Below are positions 4,599 to 58,298 of a stretch of DNA of 60,175 nt, piece after piece. The translations under genes were made by a program, and so were the position numbers. The stretch is taken from the IMG/VR virus record IMGVR_UViG_3300044801_000195, positions 1 to 60,175 of that record, one strand, 5' to 3'. How positions within the stretch are numbered: position 1 is the first letter of the stretch; every line of letters starts with the position of its first letter. Under the pieces are notes generated by a model, which saw nothing but the letters and a program-made list of their open reading frames with translations, was not told the origin of the DNA and did not search any database. The stretch comes from a virus (taxonomy: Duplodnaviria; Caudoviricetes).

Positions 4599-4910
4599 AT
4601 GACACATAAGGTTAATTTATCCACGCATGCGGAGCTAATGCGCGGCTTGGGGGGCTACAAAGCGGTGTCCGAGGCGTTGACGGGGGCGTTAGCCGAGGAC
4701 GTTCCCTATCCGACCGTCGCCTCGTGGGCGGTCAACGGTATCCCGGTGCGCGTTTGGACGGAATTCATCGCCTTCGCGAAGGACGCGGGCGTCACGGTTA
4801 CAGCCGACGAATTGCTGCGCACCCGTCCGCGGCGGACGAAGATCGAGCGGCGGATAAGGCGTAAACACTCGCGCGCTGGAATCGCGGCAAGTCATGGGGT
4901 GGCGTCATGA
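4599..4910 (+). CDS. Cro-like HTH protein (probable start MTHKVN at 4599)
   Basis: HAELMRGLGGYKAVSEAL...TVASWAVNGIPVRVW; divergent from CI. Confidence 0.75.
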   Translation: MTHKVNLSTHAELMRGLGGYKAVSEALTGALAEDVPYPTVASWAVNGIPVRVWTEFIAFAKDAGVTVTADELLRTRPRRTKIERRIRRKHSRAGIAASHGVAS

Positions 4911-5455
4911 CGGCCACTCATGCGAGGGCGGCATGGCCCGTGGAACTATTCGAGAAAGCCGCGGCAATGTGGCGCGAAGGCGCATCGGGCGCCATGATAG
5001 GCGCCGCCATCGGCAAAACCCGTGAGGCGATCATAGGGGCGATGCATAGGGCTGGCGTCCGGCAAGGTTCAAAAAACTCCGCGAACGACAAGCGATTCAA
5101 GCCAGGACCGCGGAGAAACTATCGGGCCGCGCCCATGGCGCAATCGAAATTCAGGCTATTCCCAATCCTCGGCGCCAGCAATGAAATCAGGCGGAATCCG
5201 CCCGCACCGGTCAAGATGGACACAATCCCTTCCGCGCCTGAATCGCTGCGTCTGCCCATGACACAACTTGAGACCGGCCGGTGCCACTGGCCAACCCATG
5301 AGCAAGGCGGCCTGCATCTTTTCTGCGGCCAGCCCACCGATCCCTTTTAGGTCTATTGCCCTTGTCATGGCCGGGCGGTCACCGGCCGTGGAATGCGTCA
5401 ACTAAAGGCTCAAGCCAAAGCCGCGCAATGGAGTTCGTGCAATGCTGGATGTTGA
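4907..5455 (+). pseudogene. gcrA: GcrA-family cell-cycle regulator interrupted by an in-frame TAG at 5348-5350
   Basis: N-terminal W..G.S...IG..IG.TREAIIG..HR; C-terminal CHWP...FCG.P; the expected YCxxH (VYCPCH) follows in frame after the TAG, ending at TGA 5453-55. Confidence 0.8.
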
Positions 5456-5910: not shown

Positions 5911-6176
5911 ACGGCATCGATCTGACCCCTTTCTCTCCCCAGCAGCAAGTCTTCATTTCGACGCTGGCGCTGCGCCACCCTGGCCTCGTTAGCAGCCGCG
6001 AGCTGATCGAGGCGATCTTTCCCGATCCCGATGAAGAGCCCGATGGCGCCGCCCGCATCGTCAACGTCCAGGCCCATAGAATCCGCGCGAGATGGAATAA
6101 TCGCGACTGGCGTCTCGCCTCGCGTCTCGGGCGCAGCGGCGGCTATTATCTGGAGCGTATCCATGCCGGCGATTAA
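5901..6176 (+). CDS. Stand-alone OmpR/CtrA-type winged-helix DNA-binding domain
   Basis: VSSRELIEAIF...EPDGAARIVNVQAHRIRAR...GRSGGYYL resembles Trans_reg_C; GGAGGAG RBS. Confidence 0.7.
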   Translation: MRVNGIDLTPFSPQQQVFISTLALRHPGLVSSRELIEAIFPDPDEEPDGAARIVNVQAHRIRARWNNRDWRLASRLGRSGGYYLERIHAGD

Positions 6177-21701: not shown

Positions 21702-23123
21702 ATGCGCCTTTTGAAGCTGGCGCTGGCAGCTCTGCTGCTGGCGGGCCAGGCCCTACCAGGCTTTGCCCAAACTTATCCGATCACGACGCCTGTCTATATC
21801 CCGAGCGCCATTGAGCAGCCGGCGGTGTGCATCGCGGCCTGCGATGTCGTGTTTACCGTCTCCGGTGTCTCGACGGTTACTTTGCAGCTCGTCGGCACGC
21901 CGGCGGCGATCACTGCTTCGGTGCAGGGCACCAACGAGGCGCAGAGCGTTGCCGCGCCGACCTGGACCGCGCTGAACATGATCCCGGTCAATGGCGGCTC
22001 CGCGGTCACTTCAACCTCAGCGGTTGGGTTCTGGACCGTCAACACCACCGGCCTGACCAAGGTGCGGGCGCATGTCTCCGCGCTGACGGGTTCCGTTACC
22101 GTCAACATGACGGGTTCGAGCGGCGGTACGGTTTCGTTTTCGTCGAACTCCGTGGTCCTGGCCGACGTGGAAGCCAATATCGCGCCTGGCACCGCGCCGG
22201 CGAAAGCGGCCATCGTCGGCGGCGTCTATAACTCGGCGCTGCCCACGGCGACCAATGGTCAAACCGTGGCAATTCAGCTCAACGCTTCCGGCGAGCAGCT
22301 CGTTGCCAGCCCGAATCTTGAGATGGCCATTGCGCCCGGCACCGCGCCGGCAAAGGCCCTTGCCGTCGGCGGCGTCTATAACTCGGCGCTGCCCACGGCG
22401 ACCAATGGTCAAACCGTGGCAATTCAGCTCAACGCTTCCGGCGAGCAGCTCGTTGCCAGCCCGAATCTTGAGATGGCCATTGCGCCCGGCACCGCGCCGG
22501 CAAAGGCCCTTGCCGCGGGTGGCGTCTATAACTCGGCGGCGCCCACGCTGACCAATGGACAGACGGCTGCGTTGCAGCTCAACGCCTCGGGACAGCTCAT
22601 CACCTCCACCACGAACACGGAAGGTGTAATCACCGCGGCCACCGCTCCTACTAAGATGCAAGTGAGTGGCGCGGTTTACAATTCTTCCCCGCCCTCGCTT
22701 TCGACCGGACAGAGCGCGGCATTGCAGCTCGATAACGACGGTTCACTTTATATGAACCTCCGCGACGACACAGTAGTCGCGGCGGACCCCTGCCAAAGCC
22801 GCAATGTCGCGAAGTCTTCGGTGCTATCGAATATCGGTTCTGCTACGACCACGGCGCTAGTGGCGGTTTCTGGTGTCAAAGCCATTTACGTTTGCGGTAT
22901 TTCGATAGTTACGGGCGCGGCGGATACTGTTTATCTGGAATACGGCACAAGCACGAACTGCACGGGAACAACGGCGCTCACCCCAACTTATATAGCATCG
23001 TCTCAGATAAACATCGGTTGGGGCGGCGGAACGGTTGTAACAGCCCCCGCATCGCAGGGGCTGTGCGCGGTATCCACCGGTACGAATGCCCAGCAAGTGC
23101 TTGTCAGCTACGTTCAGCAGTAA
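21702..23123 (+). CDS. Beta-rich putative virion or secreted protein with signal peptide and 50-aa internal repeats
   Basis: MRLLKLALAALLLAGQALPGFA; repeats GGVYNSALPTATNGQTVAIQLNASGEQLV. Confidence 0.75.
   Translation: MRLLKLALAALLLAGQALPGFAQTYPITTPVYIPSAIEQPAVCIAACDVVFTVSGVSTVTLQLVGTPAAITASVQGTNEAQSVAAPTWTALNMIPVNGGSAVTSTSAVGFWTVNTTGLTKVRAHVSALTGSVTVNMTGSSGGTVSFSSNSVVLADVEANIAPGTAPAKAAIVGGVYNSALPTATNGQTVAIQLNASGEQLVASPNLEMAIAPGTAPAKALAVGGVYNSALPTATNGQTVAIQLNASGEQLVASPNLEMAIAPGTAPAKALAAGGVYNSAAPTLTNGQTAALQLNASGQLITSTTNTEGVITAATAPTKMQVSGAVYNSSPPSLSTGQSAALQLDNDGSLYMNLRDDTVVAADPCQSRNVAKSSVLSNIGSATTTALVAVSGVKAIYVCGISIVTGAADTVYLEYGTSTNCTGTTALTPTYIASSQINIGWGGGTVVTAPASQGLCAVSTGTNAQQVLVSYVQQ
22180..22610 (+). 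repeat. 150-bp tandem repeat, about three copies (a fourth, diverged copy at protein level)
   Basis: ggcgtctataactcggcg at 22221, 22371 and 22521. Confidence 0.95.
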
Positions 23124-28345: not shown

Positions 28346-28971
28346 GGGGTCCCCGCGGGCGCGACCCGGCCACACTACTCCTGGCGGTAGTGTTCCTGCT
28401 CGCCGCCATCGCCGTCATTGTGTTTGTATCGGCCCCCGCGCGGGCGGAATGCGGTGTCGCCTCGGTCTACTGGCAAGGAGCGAGGACCGCCAACGGGGAA
28501 CGGTTCAACCCGGATGGCGTCTCCGCGGCGCATAAGACCCTGCCCTTCGGCTCCCGTGTCGTCGTCCGCAACCAGCGCACCGGCAAATCGATCCTGGTCC
28601 GCATCAACGACCGCGGCCCCTTTGTCGCGGGCCGCATTATCGACTTGTCGCGCGGCGCGGCGCGCCAGTTCGGGATGGCCGGGCTTGCGCAAGTCTGCAT
28701 CGATGTCGTTAGCTATGGCGGCAAGACCGTAAAGCGGCGCACCGATTATGCTCAGCACTACGCTGACCTGACCGCACGCGCGGTACATGGCACCATCCGC
28801 CGCACCGCGAAGGACTTTGGCGCATTCACTCGCGATGGAATCCATCGGGTCCAAAGGGCCGGCACTCAGATCGTCCGTATCCTGACGCCGCAACGAGTCC
28901 GGCATCACCGCGGGCATCGCCGCCACCATCGGCAAACCCACCGGCATTATCAGCCCCAGATGAGGTTCTGA
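28342..28971 (+). CDS. RlpA-like lytic transglycosylase (DPBB domain) with N-terminal hydrophobic segment
   Basis: GVASVY...TANGERFN...AAHKTLPFGS...VRINDRGPFVAGRIIDLS. Confidence 0.92.
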   Translation: MRGPRGRDPATLLLAVVFLLAAIAVIVFVSAPARAECGVASVYWQGARTANGERFNPDGVSAAHKTLPFGSRVVVRNQRTGKSILVRINDRGPFVAGRIIDLSRGAARQFGMAGLAQVCIDVVSYGGKTVKRRTDYAQHYADLTARAVHGTIRRTAKDFGAFTRDGIHRVQRAGTQIVRILTPQRVRHHRGHRRHHRQTHRHYQPQMRF

Positions 28972-28974
28972 CCG

Positions 28975-29475
28975 GTGACGATCACCCCGGTCAGCTTCGT
29001 CGCGGATTTCGCCGAGTTCGCGAACGCTTCCGACTATCCTACTAGCGCGATCACCTATTGGGCCAATCTGGGCGGCATGCTGCTCAGCACGGATCGTTTT
29101 GGGCCTGGCGCCGCGACAGCATCGGCGCCCCCCACAACGCTTTACGATATCGCGCTAGAGCTGTTCGTTGCCCACAACCTCGTCATCGAAAAGCAGGCCA
29201 AGGATTCGGCGGCGAACAATGCCGCGCCTGGTGTCAGCGAGGGGCCGGTATCGAGCAAGAGCGTTGCGGGGGTCAGTGTCTCCTACGACACGGGAGCCGC
29301 GCTTGATCCGAATGCCGGCCACTGGAATCTGACGGTCTATGGAACGCGGCTTTGGGAACTCTTCCAGAAATTCGGCGCCGGTCCCATTCAGATCACGGGC
29401 GCGCCAGCGCCCCAGATACCGGGCTTCGGCGTTCCCTGGTTCGGCCCCGTGGTCGATCAGGGCTGGAGTTGGTAA
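28975..29475 (+). CDS. DUF4054 head-tail adaptor
   Basis: F..DF.EF, LFVAH.L, SSKSV.GVSVSYD, WNLT.YG. Confidence 0.88.
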   Translation: MTITPVSFVADFAEFANASDYPTSAITYWANLGGMLLSTDRFGPGAATASAPPTTLYDIALELFVAHNLVIEKQAKDSAANNAAPGVSEGPVSSKSVAGVSVSYDTGAALDPNAGHWNLTVYGTRLWELFQKFGAGPIQITGAPAPQIPGFGVPWFGPVVDQGWSW

Positions 29476-35836: not shown

Positions 35837-36414
35837 GCCTCGTCCCGACCGGCCTCCCGCTGGCACTCGCCGCGGCGCAGGCGCTCATTGGCCCGGTTCT
35901 GATCCGGTCCCGTCAAATTGGCGGCTTCATCGCCGATGTCACCATCGAGGAGATTCATCGCGACCGGCTCACGGCAACACGGCACCCCGTGGAGCAGGGC
36001 GCCGCGATCACCGACCATTCCTACAAGGAGCCCGCCGAGGTCATCATCCGCTGCGGCTGGTCGAATTCGAGCCTTGTAAGCTTCGGCGATCCGAACTATG
36101 TCCAGAACATCTACGCGGAGTTTCTCGCGCTGCAGGCCGCCCGGCAGCCCTTCGACATCCTGACCGGCAAGCGCGCCTACACCAACATGCTCTGCACCAT
36201 GCTCCAGGTCACAACCGACGAGCGCACGGAGAACGCGCTACTGATTATGGCGGAATGCCATGAGATTTTGATCGCGCAAACGCAGGTTGTAACCGTGGGC
36301 TCGTCGTCGAACATGACGAGTCCGCAGCTTAACGGGGCGACCCAGAACACTGGCACCAATGTGCTCGGACCCGCGGGCCAGAACAACTACAGTTCGAGCT
36401 TGCCGCCGCACTGA
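35833..36414 (+). CDS. Baseplate / distal tail (Dit-like) protein
   Basis: EE.H.D....T.HPVEQGA.ITDHSY..P, TGKR.Y.NM. Confidence 0.85.
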   Translation: MSLVPTGLPLALAAAQALIGPVLIRSRQIGGFIADVTIEEIHRDRLTATRHPVEQGAAITDHSYKEPAEVIIRCGWSNSSLVSFGDPNYVQNIYAEFLALQAARQPFDILTGKRAYTNMLCTMLQVTTDERTENALLIMAECHEILIAQTQVVTVGSSSNMTSPQLNGATQNTGTNVLGPAGQNNYSSSLPPH

Positions 36415-36728
36415 TGGCAACCGCTTACGAAATCCCGCTGCAGGCCAGCGCGCAAACCTTCGTCATCCAGCTCGCCGGCGTCACTTATGGCATGACGCTG
36501 CATTGGTGCGACCCGAACCAGACCTGGATTCTCGACATTGCCGATGGCGACGGTAACGCGCTGGTTCAGGGCATCCCGCTCGTGACCGGCGCGGATTTGT
36601 TAGCGCCCTATGGCTATCTTGGTTTCGGCGGCTCTCTTTACGCGCAGACCGATTACGACACGTTCGCGCCGCCCACCTACGACAACCTCGGTTCCGCGGG
36701 CCACCTCTACTTCGTGACCAATCCATAA
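36414..36728 (+). CDS. Baseplate plug-like protein
   Basis: EIPL, WILDI.D, GIPLVTGADLL..Y.YLG. Confidence 0.8.
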   Translation: MATAYEIPLQASAQTFVIQLAGVTYGMTLHWCDPNQTWILDIADGDGNALVQGIPLVTGADLLAPYGYLGFGGSLYAQTDYDTFAPPTYDNLGSAGHLYFVTNP

Positions 36729-37687
36729 TGAGCGATCTTTACCTCCGCAAGGTGGGCCTCGCGGTTGTCATGGGCCAGAAGGCGCTCGATCTTTCGCAGA
36801 TGCGGATCGTGTTCCGCACACAAGCGGCGGATGAAGGCGCCCCGGCGACGGCGCATATCAAGGTCTACAATCTGAGCGATCACACCGCGCAATCGGTGCA
36901 GAAGGAATATCAGAGCGTCACCCTGCAGGCCGGTTACGAGAACGGGCCTTATGGGCAAATTTTCAATGGCACCATCGTCCAAGTCAAGCGCGGGCGGGAA
37001 ATCGGGGCCGGCGGCGTTGTCGATACTTATGTCCAGATCGACGCCGCCGATAGCGACATCTTCCATAATTTCCAGCTCATCAACGGAGTCCTTGCCGCCG
37101 GAGCGACCAAAGCGCAGCAAGCGCAGACCCTGGCCACGCAAGCCCAGCAAAACAAGACGCTGACGGATGCGAAGCTCGAAGCGCTCAAAAATCAGACGTC
37201 GCCAACGGGCGGCGTTCTGCCCCGCGGCAAGGTGCTGTTCGGCATGGCGCGCGACATCCTGGACGATCTCGCGGCCTCGACGGGCACGGCATGGAGCATT
37301 CAGAACGGCGTTCTCACGTTCCGCGGCCTGACCACATACGATCCAGGCGACATCGTGGTGCTGACGGCCAAAACCGGCTTGATCGTCGTTCCCGAGGCAA
37401 CCGACAACGGGATTAGGGTGCAGACCCTGCTCAATCCGTTTCTCCAAATCGCCCGCCGGGTGCAAATCGACAACAAGTCGATCAATACGACGGCGCAGCA
37501 TGCCAATTTCGGGCTCCAATATCAGGGCCTCAATTACATCGCGACCACGAACGACGACGGCATCTACCGCATTCTGGTTGTCGAGCATGCCGGGGATAGC
37601 CGCGGGCAGCAATGGCAGACCGATCTGGTTTGCCTGAATGTCGATCCGAGCTCCGCGCCGGCGAAGGCCGTGAAGGCTTACGGGTAA
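36728..37687 (+). CDS. Baseplate hub protein
   Basis: A.IKVYNLS..T, LQAGYE, PRGKV.FG, WSIQNG, TGLI..P, DGIY..L...H.GDSRG..W. Confidence 0.85.
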   Translation: MSDLYLRKVGLAVVMGQKALDLSQMRIVFRTQAADEGAPATAHIKVYNLSDHTAQSVQKEYQSVTLQAGYENGPYGQIFNGTIVQVKRGREIGAGGVVDTYVQIDAADSDIFHNFQLINGVLAAGATKAQQAQTLATQAQQNKTLTDAKLEALKNQTSPTGGVLPRGKVLFGMARDILDDLAASTGTAWSIQNGVLTFRGLTTYDPGDIVVLTAKTGLIVVPEATDNGIRVQTLLNPFLQIARRVQIDNKSINTTAQHANFGLQYQGLNYIATTNDDGIYRILVVEHAGDSRGQQWQTDLVCLNVDPSSAPAKAVKAYG

Positions 37688-37756
37688 CTCTGTTTTCAGA
37701 TTTTATGCGTATTGAATTGATGGTCTTAGCCAGAATGCGTAAACCTAGCAATGCGC

Positions 37757-37825
37757 GGCCAGGCGAGGCGCGGCGGGGTCAGGCGCGGCATGGCGTGGCT
37801 AGGCGAGGCAAGGGGCCGTATGGCC
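37757..37825 (+). ncRNA. GGY-NN pentamer array (11 units) with 3' GGCC-GTAT-GGCC hairpin; candidate VIPR-like guide RNA
   Basis: ggcCA ggcGA ggcGC ggcGG ggtCA ggcGC ggcAT ggcGT ggcTA ggcGA ggcAA at 37757-37811; intergenic, directly upstream of a RAMP-like gene. Confidence 0.8.
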
Positions 37826-37844
37826 AATTAATATGGAGGCACCA

Positions 37845-38006
37845 GTGGAAGTAATACGCAAGTATCGCATCACAATAACAGGAAGCCAGCCACTATTAAT
37901 GCATGCCGACGATATCGAATGGGCCGATCAGATGGACGCCTGGAAAGCAACCGCTGACAACAAGAAAACGGGGAAAGCGGGTGACGACCGGTCGCCCGCA
38001 TGGCGC
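37845..38006 (+). pseudogene. 5' fragment of a Cas7/RAMP-like (Vipr-like) protein; the frame runs on antisense to another gene until 38216
   Basis: GGAGG RBS then GTG; YRITITGSQPLLMH resembles the first strand of RAMP/Cas7-like phage proteins; sequence after SPAWR is the reverse strand of the neighbouring gene. Confidence 0.65.
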
Positions 38007-38333
38007 TTGCAGGCCCGGATTGGCGTTCAGCCAAACAAGCGTTTGCTTGAAAATGCAACCTTCAAGAGCGGGATAAGTCGCATTCGCGACGCATCTGGCC
38101 TTGAGCCAATCTGGCGCAAGCTTCCACTGCACCCGGATATTTGCAACCTGCTCGGCGAATTCCCGCTCGTTGCATTGCCGATCCGCGTCGCACAGCATGT
38201 CCGGAGAATTTGGTAGCACCGGCAGGCCGGGCGAAAGTTTCGCCGCTGGGGCGCGCACGGACACATTGCTCTGCGCCCAAGCGCCCTGCCCCAACAAAAA
38301 TGCCAGCAATATCGCGGCTGCATAACGGCACAT
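37896..38333 (-). CDS. Secreted Cys-containing protein (moron); native C-terminus probably lost near 38000
   Basis: MCRYAAAILLAFLLGQGAWAQ signal peptide; paired Cys; convergent overlap with the RAMP-like fragment. Confidence 0.55.
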   Translation of the reverse strand: MCRYAAAILLAFLLGQGAWAQSNVSVRAPAAKLSPGLPVLPNSPDMLCDADRQCNEREFAEQVANIRVQWKLAPDWLKARCVANATYPALEGCIFKQTLVWLNANPGLQAPCGRPVVTRFPRFLVVSGCFPGVHLIGPFDIVGMH

Positions 38334-38578
38334 GACGCTCTCCATTAACCATTTGTAAACTCCCGAAGCGGTGCCCCCGCACGCTGGCGCTGTCCACCGC
38401 GCTCCGGTTGCAATCCGCATAATTTCCGCGTTTTCCGCATGAAATCGGCCACGTACCGCATAAAAGGAGGCCCCGATGCTCGAAACCGTCCTTTTCACCC
38501 ACGCTGGGACCGCCCTGCTTGTCATCAAGATTCTGCTCACTTTTCTAACGCTGCCGCTGGGGCATTGAGTGTTGCGCC

Positions 38579-39232
38579 TTGGATAGACGCGAGCGCTTCG
38601 ACAACCCCACCGTCGCACTGCGCGCGGCGCTCAGGGGCTGGCAAACCCAGATCTGGACGGCGCTGCCCGCCATTTTCGTGGAGCCCGGCAAGGGCGTGCA
38701 AACCGCGAAGGTGCAGCCCGCGATCCAGGCTCAGCAGCGCGACCAGGCCGGGAACTGGACCCCAGTGACGATGCCGCTATGCGTCGATTGCCCAATCCTG
38801 TTTCCAGGCGGCGGCGGCTTCCAGCTTACTTTCCCGCTGGCGGCGGGCGACGAAGGGCTGCTCGTCTTTTCCGCGCGCTGCATCGACGCCTGGTGGCAGT
38901 CAGGCGGCGTGCAGCCCCAAGCCGAGGTCCGGATGCACGATCTGAGCGACGGCTTCTTCATCCCCGGCCAGCTCAGCCAGCTCAAAGTGCCCTCGGGCGG
39001 TTATAGCGCCACCAACGCGCAGCTCAAAACGGCGGGCGGCGCGGTGCTGTTCGACCTCACGCCCACGAAGATCGTTATCAACGCCAATGTGGACATCGTG
39101 GGCGCGCTGACGGCCACCGGCAATGTTACCGCGGGTAAGGGCGGCGCGGACCAGATCACCTTGCAGGGCCACCTCCATGGCGGCGTCAATACGGGCGGCG
39201 GCAGCAGTGCGCCGCCGACAGCGGGGACATGA
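38579..39232 (+). CDS. Baseplate spike (Gp138-like)
   Basis: IWTALPA, VQPAI, TFPL..GDE.L.VFS.RCID.WWQSG, RMHDLSDGF, metal-binding HLH tip. Confidence 0.9.
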   Translation: MDRRERFDNPTVALRAALRGWQTQIWTALPAIFVEPGKGVQTAKVQPAIQAQQRDQAGNWTPVTMPLCVDCPILFPGGGGFQLTFPLAAGDEGLLVFSARCIDAWWQSGGVQPQAEVRMHDLSDGFFIPGQLSQLKVPSGGYSATNAQLKTAGGAVLFDLTPTKIVINANVDIVGALTATGNVTAGKGGADQITLQGHLHGGVNTGGGSSAPPTAGT

Positions 39233-39591
39233 TGCGAGTGCGGGCACAAGACGCCAATGGCGATTACAGCTTTGGGCGGGGCTCTGGGAATTTCCTGGCG
39301 AACTCGCCGGCCGCGGTTGCCCAGCTCGTGACGACGAACCTGCTTCTGAAACGCGGCGAATGGTTTCTCGATCAAACCGCGGGCACCCCTTGGTCAACCG
39401 AAATCCTGGGCTACGGCACGGCCCCCCTCTACGACCTGGCGATCAAGCAAACGGTGCTCGATACGCCTGGGGTCTCCTCCATCGATTCCTACTCTTCGGA
39501 CTTCGACAAAACCACGCGCGCGCTGACGGTGAACATGACGATCCTGACCGCCTACGATCCCGTGGCCGTTCCCGTGAACGTGACGCTCTGA
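39229..39591 (+). CDS. Baseplate wedge subunit
   Basis: D.NGDYSFG, AVAQ.V.T.L.L..GEWFLD...GTPW. Confidence 0.85.
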   Translation: MMRVRAQDANGDYSFGRGSGNFLANSPAAVAQLVTTNLLLKRGEWFLDQTAGTPWSTEILGYGTAPLYDLAIKQTVLDTPGVSSIDSYSSDFDKTTRALTVNMTILTAYDPVAVPVNVTL

Positions 39592-39592
39592 C

Positions 39593-40807
39593 GTGACGAC
39601 GCTTGCCCCGCAAATCGGGCCGGCCGGGATCTCTGGGCCGAGCTATGCCGATACTTTCGCCCAGCTTCAGAATATGTATTGGACCGTCTACGGCTCCGAT
39701 GCGGTGCTGGACCCCTCGACCCAGGACGGCCAATTTCTCGCCATCGTGGCGCAGGCGATTTACGACACCGGCCAGGCTTGTATCTCGGTCTATAACTCCT
39801 TCTCCCCGGCAACGGCCCTAGACGCGGCGCTGTCCTCGCGTGTTGGCATTAATGGCCTGACCCGCAACGTGGCCGGCTATTCCACCGCGACCGTGACGCT
39901 GACCGGCACCGCGGCGGCCGTTATCGGCAACGGCATTGTTGGCGACAACCAGAACCTCGGCACCCAATGGGCGCTGCCCGCCACCGTTACTATCGGGGGC
40001 GGCGGCACCGCGACGGTAACGGCGACCTCGACAGCAGCCGGAAACGTGTCCGCGGGCGCGGGCACCCTCGTCAACATCCTGACGCCAATGCTGGGCTGGC
40101 AGAGCGTCACCAATGCCGCCGCCGCGGCCGTTGGACTGCCCGTCGAGAGCGACGCCGCCCTGCGGCAGCGCCAAGCCGCATCCGCGGGACTTCCGGGACT
40201 TACACAGCTTGAGGGCATCTACGCCGCCGTCGCGGCGCTACCGGGCGTTGGCGCCCCCGCCGTCTTCGAGAACGATACCGGCATCACCAATGCGCTGGGC
40301 CTGCCGCCGCATTCGATTTCCGCCGTTGTGCAGGGCGGCGCCATTTCCGCCATCGCCGGCGCCATCGCGCTCAAAAAGAGTCCCGGCACCTCAACCTACG
40401 GCACCACGAGTCAGCTCGTCATCGATCAGAACGGCGTGCCGGTTATCGTCAATTTCTACCAGCTCGCCACGGTCACGATTAGCGTTGAAGTCACGGTCAA
40501 GGCGCTAACCGGCTATGTCTCGACCACGGCAACGCTAATCGAGCAAGCGGTCGCGGCTTTCATCTCCGGTCTTGGCATCGGCGGCCAGGTTTATCTGAAC
40601 CGCCTTTATATGCCGGCCAATCTGGGCGGTGACAACGCCGTGGCGGCAACCGGCTACAGTCAAGAGCAATTGGACGCCTTCGCGGCAACCTACAATGTCA
40701 GCGGTATCCGCATCGGCACCCCAGCGCTTGGGACCGCCGATATTCCGCTCAACTTCTATCAAGCCGCGATCTGCGTTATCGCGAATGTCACCGTGATCCA
40801 GACCTAA
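39593..40807 (+). CDS. Baseplate J/gp47 family protein
   Basis: DGQ, YNSFSP.TA, ESDAALRQRQ, ENDT, PPHSIS.VV.GG. Confidence 0.9.
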   Translation: MTTLAPQIGPAGISGPSYADTFAQLQNMYWTVYGSDAVLDPSTQDGQFLAIVAQAIYDTGQACISVYNSFSPATALDAALSSRVGINGLTRNVAGYSTATVTLTGTAAAVIGNGIVGDNQNLGTQWALPATVTIGGGGTATVTATSTAAGNVSAGAGTLVNILTPMLGWQSVTNAAAAAVGLPVESDAALRQRQAASAGLPGLTQLEGIYAAVAALPGVGAPAVFENDTGITNALGLPPHSISAVVQGGAISAIAGAIALKKSPGTSTYGTTSQLVIDQNGVPVIVNFYQLATVTISVEVTVKALTGYVSTTATLIEQAVAAFISGLGIGGQVYLNRLYMPANLGGDNAVAATGYSQEQLDAFAATYNVSGIRIGTPALGTADIPLNFYQAAICVIANVTVIQT

Positions 40808-56725: not shown

Positions 56726-56997
56726 CCGTACAGCTCCTTCATTTCGGCTCGAATACGCTTATTCTCCTCCCGGTACTCCCGGACCTTATCCTTGGCGCAA
56801 TCCTTGCAATTGTGCCTGCCGAGGCGATCGACACGCACATTTTCCGCCGTCAGCAGGTGGCCTTTCGAGCACCGCTCGCCCAGAACGTTCTTATGAGGGC
56901 CGCCCTTTGCGCTGCGGAGGAGCTTCGTTATTTCCTCACGCGCCGCCGCTCCGCTTGTGGCGGATGCGTCGGGGACCGTTTTATCCGCCTTGGTCAT
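56722..56997 (-). CDS. Small zinc-ribbon protein (CSKGH...EN...CKDC)
   Basis: Motif resembling the module appended to phage HNH endonucleases, here stand-alone. Confidence 0.65.
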   Translation of the reverse strand: MTKADKTVPDASATSGAAAREEITKLLRSAKGGPHKNVLGERCSKGHLLTAENVRVDRLGRHNCKDCAKDKVREYREENKRIRAEMKELYG

Positions 56998-57308
56998 TTC
57001 GCCGGCCTTTTCGTCCTGCCTTGACCGGCCGGCAACCCCCGGTTCCGCGCCAGCCTGCGATCGTGCTCCGGATCGATGACCCGTCCTTGGCCAGTCGACC
57101 CTTGGCGGTTCCGCGCAAAGCGTTTATCCTGCTTTGGATCGATGACCCGTCCTTGGCCAGTCGACCCTTGGCGGTTCCGCGCAAAGCGTTTATCCTGCTT
57201 TGGATCGATGACCCGTCCTTGGCCAGTCGACCCTTGGCGGTTCCGCGCAAAGCGTTTATCCTGCTTTGGATCGACGACTCTTCCCTGCTTGCCTTTCGTT
57301 TCGCTCAT
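56994..57308 (-). CDS. Basic hydrophilic 22-aa repeat protein (GRVIDPKQDKRFARNRQGSTGQ, about four copies)
   Basis: ATGA coupling at both ends; AAGGAG RBS. Confidence 0.75.
   Translation of the reverse strand: MSETKGKQGRVVDPKQDKRFARNRQGSTGQGRVIDPKQDKRFARNRQGSTGQGRVIDPKQDKRFARNRQGSTGQGRVIDPEHDRRLARNRGLPAGQGRTKRPAK
57040..57285. repeat. 66-bp tandem repeat, three identical units plus diverged ends
   Basis: gatcgatgacccgtccttggcc... at 57071, 57137 and 57203. Confidence 0.97.
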
Positions 57309-58132
57309 GCGGCTCCTTCCGCCCAGATTTCAAACAACGCGGCCCGCACCATGGGATCGCTCTCTTTAACGATCGCGGCTTCGTCTAGCTTCCAGCGTTG
57401 GATAATCGCCCAGCTCGGAATTACGCAGCCATGCCAAGCGAAGATGCCGAAACCATCCTTCCAAGCCAGCGCCGGACCCGCTGTGGCATGGAGGCGGCCA
57501 TTGGCATCGAGAGCTACATTCACTGGGCGGTCGCAGACTAGGGCGGCATCCTGGCACGGGAATAGCCAGCCCGCTGTTTGTGCGTAGGTTTTATAGGCGT
57601 CGAACCAATCCCAAAGATCCGGCGGGATTTTCAGCAATCCAGTCTGGATCGCAAAATCGTAGGTGGCGAGCCAAAACGCGTCCTGGCCTCCGAGGAATCG
57701 CGGGGATTGGACGATGTCGCGGTCGATGCCGCTCAGCGCGAGACCGTGATCGAGGTTGACCATGAAACAGCCGGTGCGCAGCCAATGCAGGGCGCAATAG
57801 AATTCGGTGGCGAGATAGGCCTGCATCTCCTCGCCGAGCTGAGCCTCGAATAGCTCGAATAGGGCGTTGCGATAGGGGTCCATTAGGCTATGGAGCTGAA
57901 CGCGGCGGTCGATAATATTGCAGCGGGTGGCGCGGTGCTGTAGCGCCCGGAATGGCGATGAAAATAAGTTAACCTCCGGTGCTGCAAATCCGGTTACGGT
58001 ATAGAGGTGCTGTGCGGCATTAACCGCCGCCTTCTGGCTCATGGACGCGGTATTGGTTAAAACCTCGTGCCACTCCCGCCGGACCTGGCCGAGGATAGGC
58101 TTCAAGGTGAAGATGGATAAGAGGTTTGTCAT
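57305..58132 (-). CDS. DUF6745-like protein
   Basis: GQDAFWLA.YDF, GWLFP, CDRP...D.NGRLH...GPAL.W.DGF..FAWHG. Confidence 0.8.
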   Translation of the reverse strand: MTNLLSIFTLKPILGQVRREWHEVLTNTASMSQKAAVNAAQHLYTVTGFAAPEVNLFSSPFRALQHRATRCNIIDRRVQLHSLMDPYRNALFELFEAQLGEEMQAYLATEFYCALHWLRTGCFMVNLDHGLALSGIDRDIVQSPRFLGGQDAFWLATYDFAIQTGLLKIPPDLWDWFDAYKTYAQTAGWLFPCQDAALVCDRPVNVALDANGRLHATAGPALAWKDGFGIFAWHGCVIPSWAIIQRWKLDEAAIVKESDPMVRAALFEIWAEGAA

Positions 58133-58298
58133 TGCGCGCCGCCATCCCCTTTTTCTTCCCGCGCCAGCCGCCTCATCTCGGCGAGCCATTGATCGCGTAT
58201 CGCGACCCATGTGTCCTTCATCTTGGACTCTTGAGGATCTGGGCAGATTATCCAGGCGAGATTTAGCAACCGCTTAAATAGCCACCAGCGGAAAGCAG

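Follow-up and report, generated by a model that had tools for sequence, protein, structure and literature searches.

A probable broken VIPR locus, a solitary vrRNA gene with a vipr stub, in a temperate peat myophage

Introduction

VIPR systems (the name stands for Viral Interference Programmable Repeat) are described in three 2026 preprints (10.64898/2026.04.26.720920, 10.64898/2026.04.26.720927 and 10.64898/2026.10.15.759431). In the mechanism set out there, one Vipr protomer occupies each repeat of a guide RNA (vrRNA) with the GGY bases flipped out, the NN pairs read double-stranded DNA while every third base is skipped, and the filament silences transcription. Here we describe a locus related to these systems in a phage contig, IMG/VR record IMGVR_UViG_3300044801_000195 (Duplodnaviria; Caudoviricetes), the whole 60,175 bp of which were analysed and are called the window below. 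The locus consists of an array of GGYNN pentamers and the start of a vipr gene, lying between the genes for the baseplate hub and the baseplate spike. An earlier sequence-only reading had compared it with phage VIPR systems using GGY/NN guides, and such systems are indeed described in the preprints.

The preprints place 664 representative loci in seven types (I–VII). A vrRNA is called from at least four YNNGG units, with 9–16 being typical, and is a transcript of ~100 nt that co-purifies with Vipr; an accessory vap gene stands beside vipr, and Escherichia phage SUSP1 and a Pseudomonas fulva prophage are given as type II examples (10.64898/2026.04.26.720920). The cryo-electron microscopy preprint assigns recognition of G1 to H17 and D177, of G2 to R138 and W178, and of Y3 to the G-loop and helix-1, and reports that D177A or R138A abolishes silencing (10.64898/2026.04.26.720927). 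The VIPR system itself is thus no longer unreported, and solo-vrRNA loci have also been described for enterobacterial phages: 346 VIPR-null phages keep one or two solo vrRNAs, and in SUSP1 satellites solo vrRNAs redirect the phage's Vipr, an anti-VIPR activity that was shown experimentally (10.64898/2026.10.15.759431).

We conclude that the window very probably carries a broken VIPR locus, a solo vrRNA plus a vipr stub, at a hub-spike insertion hotspot of a temperate peat myophage. A 264-bp piece of a VIPR cassette (37747–38010) would have survived between hub and spike, comprising a complete-looking vrRNA gene (12 YNNGG repeats and the hairpin tail of its clade), a ribosome-binding site and the first 54 vipr codons. 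In place of the remaining ~165 codons, whose product would comprise RRM helix-1, the thumb and the glycine-rich loop, which together hold the GGY bases, there now appears to be unrelated DNA of 568 bp, and any downstream vrRNA array would have gone too. Such a phage should be unable to build a Vipr filament alone, and its guide could presumably act only with Vipr supplied by another VIPR-positive element in the same cell. The VIPR-like RNA-guided module that the sequence-only reading proposed was therefore right in kind but not complete, since its RAMP gene is a 54-codon stub and the genome holds no intact vipr.

Comparison with described systems

The locus resembles VIPR as described in print (10.64898/2026.04.26.720920) in its GGY/NN pentamers, 12 here against 9–16 in the preprint, in the structured invariable 3′ tail that caps the repeats, in the position of the vrRNA directly upstream of vipr, and in being phage-borne. 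The stub's full-length relatives match SUSP1 Vipr in sequence and are predicted to share the RAMP fold, and the locus is carried by a virus without a CRISPR array or cas genes. It differs in that vipr is cut to 54 codons and so falls short of the required RAMP/RRM core, thumb and G-loop, and in that no vap gene and no downstream array were found. Relative to SUSP1 in particular, the tail is a simple 4-bp hairpin, whereas the preprint describes a pseudoknot, and identity between the protein clade and SUSP1 Vipr is no more than ~25%; the clade may already be among the 664 typed loci.

The closest published counterparts are the VIPR-null phages (10.64898/2026.10.15.759431), in which vipr was likewise lost by deletion or replacement while a vrRNA with the consensus tail was kept. 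What defines that group is also what the window shows, namely a single vrRNA and a conserved tail but no functional vipr. The published VIPR-null phages, however, belong to the SUSP1 family, infect Enterobacteriaceae and, as the preprint describes them, lost vipr and vap1 cleanly by a shared 1.1–1.4 kb deletion, whereas the locus here lies in an unrelated temperate E217/Pam3-like peat phage, where a 54-codon stub is left and foreign DNA replaces the rest.

Class 1 CRISPR-Cas systems (Cas7/Csm3 on crRNA) share the RAMP fold with the full-length relatives of the stub and, with VIPR as described in print, one protomer per fixed RNA period and a thumb that interrupts pairing (10.64898/2026.04.26.720927). 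The window differs from them in having no CRISPR repeats or spacers, no Cas family in 60 open reading frames (ORFs), and a 5-nt period with two informative bases. The locus is not a CRISPR-Cas member.

Results

The repeat array

The guide portion of the locus consists of the following features.

37747–37756, plus strand: degenerate 5′ units AGCAA and TGCGC, by direct sequence reading; TGCGC completes the twelfth unit in the YNNGG register
37754–37813, plus strand: vrRNA guide repeat tract, 12 exact units in the published YNNGG register; NN = GC CA GA GC GG CA GC AT GT TA GA AA
37814–37825, plus strand: vrRNA 3′ tail hairpin GGCC-GTAT-GGCC, beginning at the third G after the last NN
37835–37839, plus strand: ribosome-binding site GGAGG, 5 nt before the GTG start, by direct reading

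In the GGYNN register the plus strand holds 11 exact units at 37757–37811 (in order, GGCCA GGCGA GGCGC GGCGG GGTCA GGCGC GGCAT GGCGT GGCTA GGCGA GGCAA), whose NN are those listed above after the first. These units, the degenerate units before them, the hairpin, the ribosome-binding site and the ORF between hub and spike are all present in the sequence as first described. Across the whole window and on both strands, the array is the sole run of at least four exact GGYNN units, other runs reaching at most three, and a scan for degenerate arrays, accepting 7 or more of 9 units, found no second one in the window. When the window was simulated 200 times with a first-order Markov model, the longest run reached three units in 144 simulations, four in 52 and five in 4, and the analytic chance expectation for an 11-unit run is ~1e-10.

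A chance or slippage microsatellite, or part of a coding ORF unrelated to VIPR, might be suggested by the modest score given to the array by TRF (67% matches at period 5) and by an 80-aa ORF, 37612–37854, that overlaps it. A period of five is not compatible with codons, however, the variation is confined to two of the five positions, and the run exceeds the longest one simulated. The same architecture, with the same tail, also recurs next to this protein family at 58 of the 62 related loci (see below). These comparative data refute the microsatellite and coding explanations, which the sequence-only reading had also argued against, and their probability is negligible.

The tail hairpin

The tail of the vrRNA, GGGGCCGTATGGCC, is identical in all seven listed arrays of one relative (L019) and in one array of another (L024). 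All 45 unique tails that start with GGG were collected from the relatives and combined with that of the window, tails of the GGAAC/GGATC class being left out. In 34 of these 46 tails the third G is the exact start of a hairpin with 4 bp or more, 17 different stems being represented; shuffled tails gave a mean of 2.5 and a maximum of 9. Judged from this covariation, the tail hairpin is a conserved element with compensatory changes. The hairpin is included in the minimum-free-energy fold. Taken as a whole, the 86-nt RNA folds in no unusual way (z -1.78), and the tail hairpin alone is meaningful. In the same order as in the window, tail, ~20 nt, ribosome-binding site and start codon follow one another in the relatives.

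Array ends among the 62 related loci (L001–L062) fall into two classes, GGG followed by a short hairpin, or head-to-tail arrays joined through GGAAC/GGATC junctions; the latter may be the 'staggered' arrays described in 10.64898/2026.04.26.720920. An Rfam search of the whole window returned nothing at gathering score. The sole weak match in 37600–38650, naRNA4 (E 0.49), was dismissed as chance.

The vipr stub and the unrelated DNA after it

Downstream of the tail, the following features were delimited.

37845–38006, plus strand: 5′ stub of vipr, 54 codons, with strand beta-1 carrying the equivalent of the GGY-contacting His and part of the helical bundle
38007–38216, plus strand: continuation of the frame, 69 codons and a stop, without relatives
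38011–38578, no strand: unrelated DNA (568 bp) where the rest of vipr and any downstream array would lie, by blastn, tblastx and Rfam
37896–38333, minus strand: putative gene without relatives (ORFan), ATG at 38333, 145 aa, N-terminus resembling a signal peptide (MCRYAAAILLAFLLGQGAWAQ...)

A GTG at 37845 opens the ORF VEVIRKYRITITGSQPLLMH, which had been read as a 54-aa fragment. The homology does cover the first 54 codons and no others, but the frame itself runs from 37845 to 38216 and encodes 123 aa. A HMMER search with the 123-aa product against 1.84 billion representatives gave 196 matches at E ≤1e-3. Among the 150 matches listed, 148 cover only the N-terminal part of the query (starting at 1–12 and ending at 35–84), the remaining two being multi-stretch alignments to long proteins; many of the matched proteins are 216–237 aa long and are aligned at their own N-terminus. 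Residues 55–123 had no relative in that search, again among the 150 matches listed, and no Pfam or PHROG family was found for the 123-aa ORF. From these comparisons, 38007–38216 appears to be read-through into unrelated DNA.

The reverse comparisons stop at the same place. In tblastn searches of the window with eight full-length relatives (216–225 aa), only residues 1–51 (1–63 in one case) were matched, at 37854–38006 or 38048, with 40–67% identity. A profile hidden Markov model built from 57 full-length proteins (220 positions) and run over six frames of the whole genome with all filters off found a single match, to positions 3–57 (E 3e-21); some 163 of the 220 positions are therefore absent from the phage. 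The missing part includes the thumb and G-loop (the regions of SUSP1 R138 and of D177/W178/R179) and the GDWRP motif, which is nearly invariant in the relatives. All nine invariant N-terminal residues of a 49-row alignment of relatives (A1) are present in the stub, among them the equivalent of H17. At the DNA level, similarity to VIPR loci spans 37747–38010 only, and homology ends at 38006–38010.

The remnants and short ORFs L009 6001–6249, L010 ~6001–6108, P0017, P0049 and P0113 lose homology near the same place as the window, directly after an invariant GDDRSPAW motif. This shared end may mark a recurrent breakpoint or may reflect bias from the 54-aa query.

The open frame, the good ribosome-binding site at the correct spacing and the conserved N-terminal residues could be taken to mean that a short Vipr-like protein of 123 aa is made and works, the locus being an autonomous minimal system. 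Against this, residues 55–123 are without relatives, the thumb/G-loop region, in which D177A or R138A is reported to abolish silencing (10.64898/2026.04.26.720927), is absent, and residues 1–54 do not make an RRM in a modelled relative, where they form one beta-strand and about one and a half helices. We consider a working short protein very improbable.

An assembly chimera, with the junction at ~38006–38010 an artefact and an intact vipr in the real phage, is slightly less credible still. The sequence comes from a metagenome assembly, and repeats can be mis-joined. The stretch is contained, however, in two public peat-metagenome runs (X1 and X2), whose Logan contigs of 31,609 nt (depth 64, run X1) and 4,439 nt (depth 12, run X2) span 37445–38700 with 0 differences and no joint or loose end at the break; these runs are possibly the source of the assembly, the assembler being independent.

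For the 568 bp at 38011–38578, blastn and tblastx comparisons with the 62 VIPR loci and with 80 hub-spike loci from other phages gave no match, and Rfam gave no family. The ORFan on the minus strand, whose last ~37 codons are antisense to the vipr stub, matched only itself among 5.8 billion clusters and had no Pfam or PHROG match. Its third-position GC is 0.65, and that of the whole hub-spike gap 0.57–0.65, compared with 0.76–0.84 in the flanking genes. Between stub and spike no vap gene was found, only the ORFan; the vap families are without a library model, and distant homology is possible.

The stub belongs to the Vipr family

Relatives of the stub were examined at 62 loci, 10 from genomes and 52 from viral contigs. 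The gene is full-length (212–243 aa) at 58 of them, cut by the contig end at two, and itself a remnant at two (L009 and L010). The protein of one locus (L002) matched PDB entry 36pp_D, 'SUSP1 Vipr protein', with E 3.4e-13, and the alignment A1 matched only PDB 36pp, with E 6.3e-18 and across both halves. By tblastn, the protein of another locus (L013) matched phiSUSP1 28528–29061 with 24.5% identity over 92% of its length, and this segment lies within the vipr deletion interval given in 10.64898/2026.10.15.759431. An AlphaFold model of the L013 protein (pLDDT 94.8) was used for a Foldseek search, in which every listed row was a CRISPR RAMP subunit or Cas6 (best E 3.6e-6; TM 0.44–0.52). The full-length relatives are thus, on the evidence of this model, RAMP-fold proteins, as the first strand of the peptide had suggested in the sequence-only reading. 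The family identity of the stub as Vipr is secure.

Arrays of at least four GGYNN units were sought up to 400 nt upstream and up to 1,500 nt downstream of each gene. They were present at 58 of the 62 loci, including 56 of the 58 with a full-length gene, and 328 lay on the vipr strand compared with 4 on the opposite strand; the background was 2 arrays in 596 kb of unrelated phage loci. Array lengths in the relatives range from 6 to 24 units, which brackets the 12 of the window. Over 2,199 units from arrays of at least six units in the 62 loci, the entropy of NN is 3.87 of 4 bits and Y is C in 92% and T in 8%; the constancy of GGY is built in, being a requirement of the scan. A RAMP fold in homologues, adjacent arrays, and a constant GGY beside a varying NN were checks set in advance, and none of these three refuted the VIPR assignment.

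The insertion site

The locus is bounded by the following features.

36728–37687, plus strand: baseplate hub gene (PF22759 E217_GP41, E 1.1e-6; phrog_196 baseplate hub, E 1.5e-56)
37688–37746, no strand: AT-rich spacer, GC 0.37, directly 5′ of the array
38579–39232, plus strand: baseplate spike gene (PF18352, E 7e-32)

The hub-spike gap of the window is 891 nt long, of which 264 nt are VIPR-derived, the rest matching none of the loci compared. The spacer at 37688–37746 may hold a promoter, though none was detected; it was similar to no VIPR locus and to no hub-spike insert of the relatives, and blastn homology to VIPR loci starts at 37747–37753. For comparison, 80 phage loci with a related spike were collected (L101–L180), 76 of which also have the hub. 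The estimated gap between the two genes is -13 to +22 nt in 43 of these 76, 78–163 nt in 3, 381–588 nt in 28 and 852 nt in 2. None of the 76 gaps contained a vipr match or an array, and the inserts of these relatives are unlike the gap of the window; conversely, hub and spike genes were lacking within 6 kb at every one of the 62 VIPR loci. Since the junctions are either tight (43) or carry non-VIPR inserts (33), the cassette is best regarded as an acquired moron, and the comparison of gaps marks the junction as an insertion hotspot that once received a VIPR cassette, later cut down.

Search for targets of the guide

Matches were scored under the published 1-nt skip rule with all 12 units (24 NN bases), a natural target being expected to reach at least 80% NN match; contig databases were scanned with exact 9- and 11-unit patterns only. 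The predicted guide reading is 5′-(GC)xCAxGAxGCxGGxCAxGCxATxGTxTAxGAxAA-3′. Within the window itself the best self-match under the 1-nt skip is 16/24, equal to that of other skip rules. The targets published for the VIPR-null phages (vipr, other vrRNAs and satellites, as the preprint 10.64898/2026.10.15.759431 gives them) were not recovered in the 62 VIPR loci, where the best match is 18/24 and guides with scrambled unit order reach a maximum of 17–19. The exact 11-unit pattern had 0 matches in viral contigs and 0 in metagenome contigs. Nine-unit windows in viral contigs gave four matches for units 2–10 (u2-10), none for u4-12, four for u3-11 and four for u1-9, and u2-10 gave 34 in metagenome contigs. 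The best match overall is 22/24 (contigs L081, L099 and L087), with none higher, which we estimate to be roughly the chance level for a database of this size. These are also implausible carriers of a target: two of the three contigs have 44–46% GC, compared with 60% in the phage, and in the third the match lies in a 53-codon open frame.

Read in codon register, the guide spells AHEAGHAIVY, a zinc motif of M41 peptidases, with HEAGHAIVY falling to the u2-10 core. Its in-frame options, A-H/Q-D/E-A-G-H/Q-A-I/M-V-Y, are compatible with HExxH, a property that none of 204 other guides has and that appears in 2.4% of cases when the guide's own units are shuffled. Some 27 of the 38 u2-10 rows (34 metagenome and 4 viral, with some duplicates) have HEAGHAI/MVY in frame. 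Of seven ORFs tested, four reach the Pfam cut-off for Peptidase_M41; the others are a HAD phosphatase, a sub-threshold case and an ORF without a family. Small proteins with AHEAGHAIV are also encoded on two viral contigs of high GC, L187 and L188, which match the guide at 19/24 and 18/24 bases; the M41 matches of these proteins lie below the cut-off. This reading of the guide is a lead, not a finding. Host FtsH was tentatively set aside as a target on its motif only, in which a Tyr presumably precedes HEAGHA and none follows the Ile/Val pair.

Relic or guide used in trans

The presence of the stub dates the break as recent. Given a broken locus, we slightly favour a recent, functionless relic, which we consider somewhat likelier than a solo vrRNA used in trans. 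A maintained solo vrRNA, an explanation that differs from the preferred one only in the use made of the remnant, is a tentative alternative of appreciable but lesser probability: the guide would be under selection and would be loaded in trans by the hairpin-tail Vipr of a co-infecting or resident VIPR-positive element, redirecting that machinery to a decoy or silencing a competitor gene. All 12 repeats and the tail are perfect, and an identical tail occurs in L019 and L024, loci with intact Vipr, so compatible proteins exist in nature. Other contigs with GGYNN arrays occur in the same peat runs, the anti-VIPR activity of SUSP1 satellites and the 346 VIPR-null phages set a precedent in 10.64898/2026.10.15.759431, and the guide has its unusual HExxH-compatible reading, the u2-10 core retrieving in-frame HEAGHAIVY coding sequences and L187 and L188 encoding the small AHEAGHAIV proteins. 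Against this, the exact 11-unit pattern is missing from viral and metagenome contigs alike, the best matches of 22/24 are near the estimated chance level in contigs with unlike GC or a short frame, nothing exceeds scrambled guides in the 62 VIPR loci, and the stub is as undecayed as the guide, no differential conservation being visible.

Several observations weigh against the interpretation of the locus as a broken remnant, or against parts of it. The stub keeps its invariant residues and an open frame, which fits a very recent break but would also allow some use of the 123-aa product. Since guide and stub are equally undecayed, the intact guide is no evidence of selection, and the division between relic and use in trans is a matter of judgement. 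No sigma-70-like promoter was found in 37400–38700, there are no RNA runs among the public runs that contain this stretch, and no convincing target above a meaningful threshold emerged from the searches made, so that guide function is putative. Support for the junction from the Logan contigs is only weakly independent, because X1 and X2 may both be the assembly source. The scan of 37400–38700 gave one terminator-like site, on the minus strand at 38487–38469, which is within shuffle expectation.

A more elaborate proposal, which we regard as unlikely, would make stub and guide together a maintained anti-rival device. A competing hairpin-tail Vipr would be steered onto the codon-register AHEAGHAIVY site of an M41-like peptidase gene in a competitor or host, a site without synonymous escape, and the 123-aa stub protein might also cap or poison rival filaments.

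The solo vrRNAs described in the preprint (10.64898/2026.10.15.759431) come from one enterobacterial phage family; under the broken-locus interpretation, the present locus suggests that the protein can be lost and the guide kept in a distant Vipr clade too. As the stub is still present, it would represent a natural intermediate of vipr loss. Should the in-frame HExxH reading be confirmed, it would add a second case in which VIPR guides are directed at codon-constrained sites. As nothing more than a relic, the locus would be a case of ordinary gene decay.

Contigs of peat run X1 and of a pond run (X3) match the array only (37753–37815) and continue into different GGYNN repeats, which indicates other VIPR arrays in those communities.

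Other features of the phage genome

The genome is a single contig with 60% GC from a temperate E217/Pam3-like myophage of peat. It encodes a small terminase, a portal, a Mu-F-like protein, a major capsid protein, a cement protein, a sheath-like DUF3383 protein and a tube protein, together with a tape measure containing a lysozyme domain, E217/Pam3-type baseplate proteins, an integrase and replication genes. No Cas families were found among the 60 ORFs scanned, and the tandem repeats of the window are not CRISPR-like, with no repeat-spacer array accompanied by cas genes. The DNA of 36000–40000, compared with isolated phages, gave only short matches of 69–75% in the spike and hub genes, to phages of Burkholderia, Ralstonia and Salmonella, and no close relative.

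The two contig ends, 1–353 and 59814–60175, carry the same 30-bp tandem repeat in ~12 copies each (94% matches) in rotated register. Probably, then, the contig represents a circular or terminally redundant molecule that the assembler split within a repeat of ~24 copies. A gene at 4907–5347 (plus strand) resembles the GcrA cell-cycle regulator (PF07750, E 1.7e-11). The GcrA family is typical of Alphaproteobacteria and their phages, and the gene hints at the host. The portal protein (PF06381; 18417–20399, plus strand) has a C-terminal inorganic-pyrophosphatase-like domain (PF18823, E 2.9e-17). A 150-bp tandem repeat of 2.5–2.8 copies at 22182–22609 lies inside the ORF 21702–23120, and a 66-bp repeat at 57070–57278 (3.2 copies, 99% identical) overlaps the minus-strand ORF 56997–57308, which adjoins a DUF6745 gene at 57308–58210.

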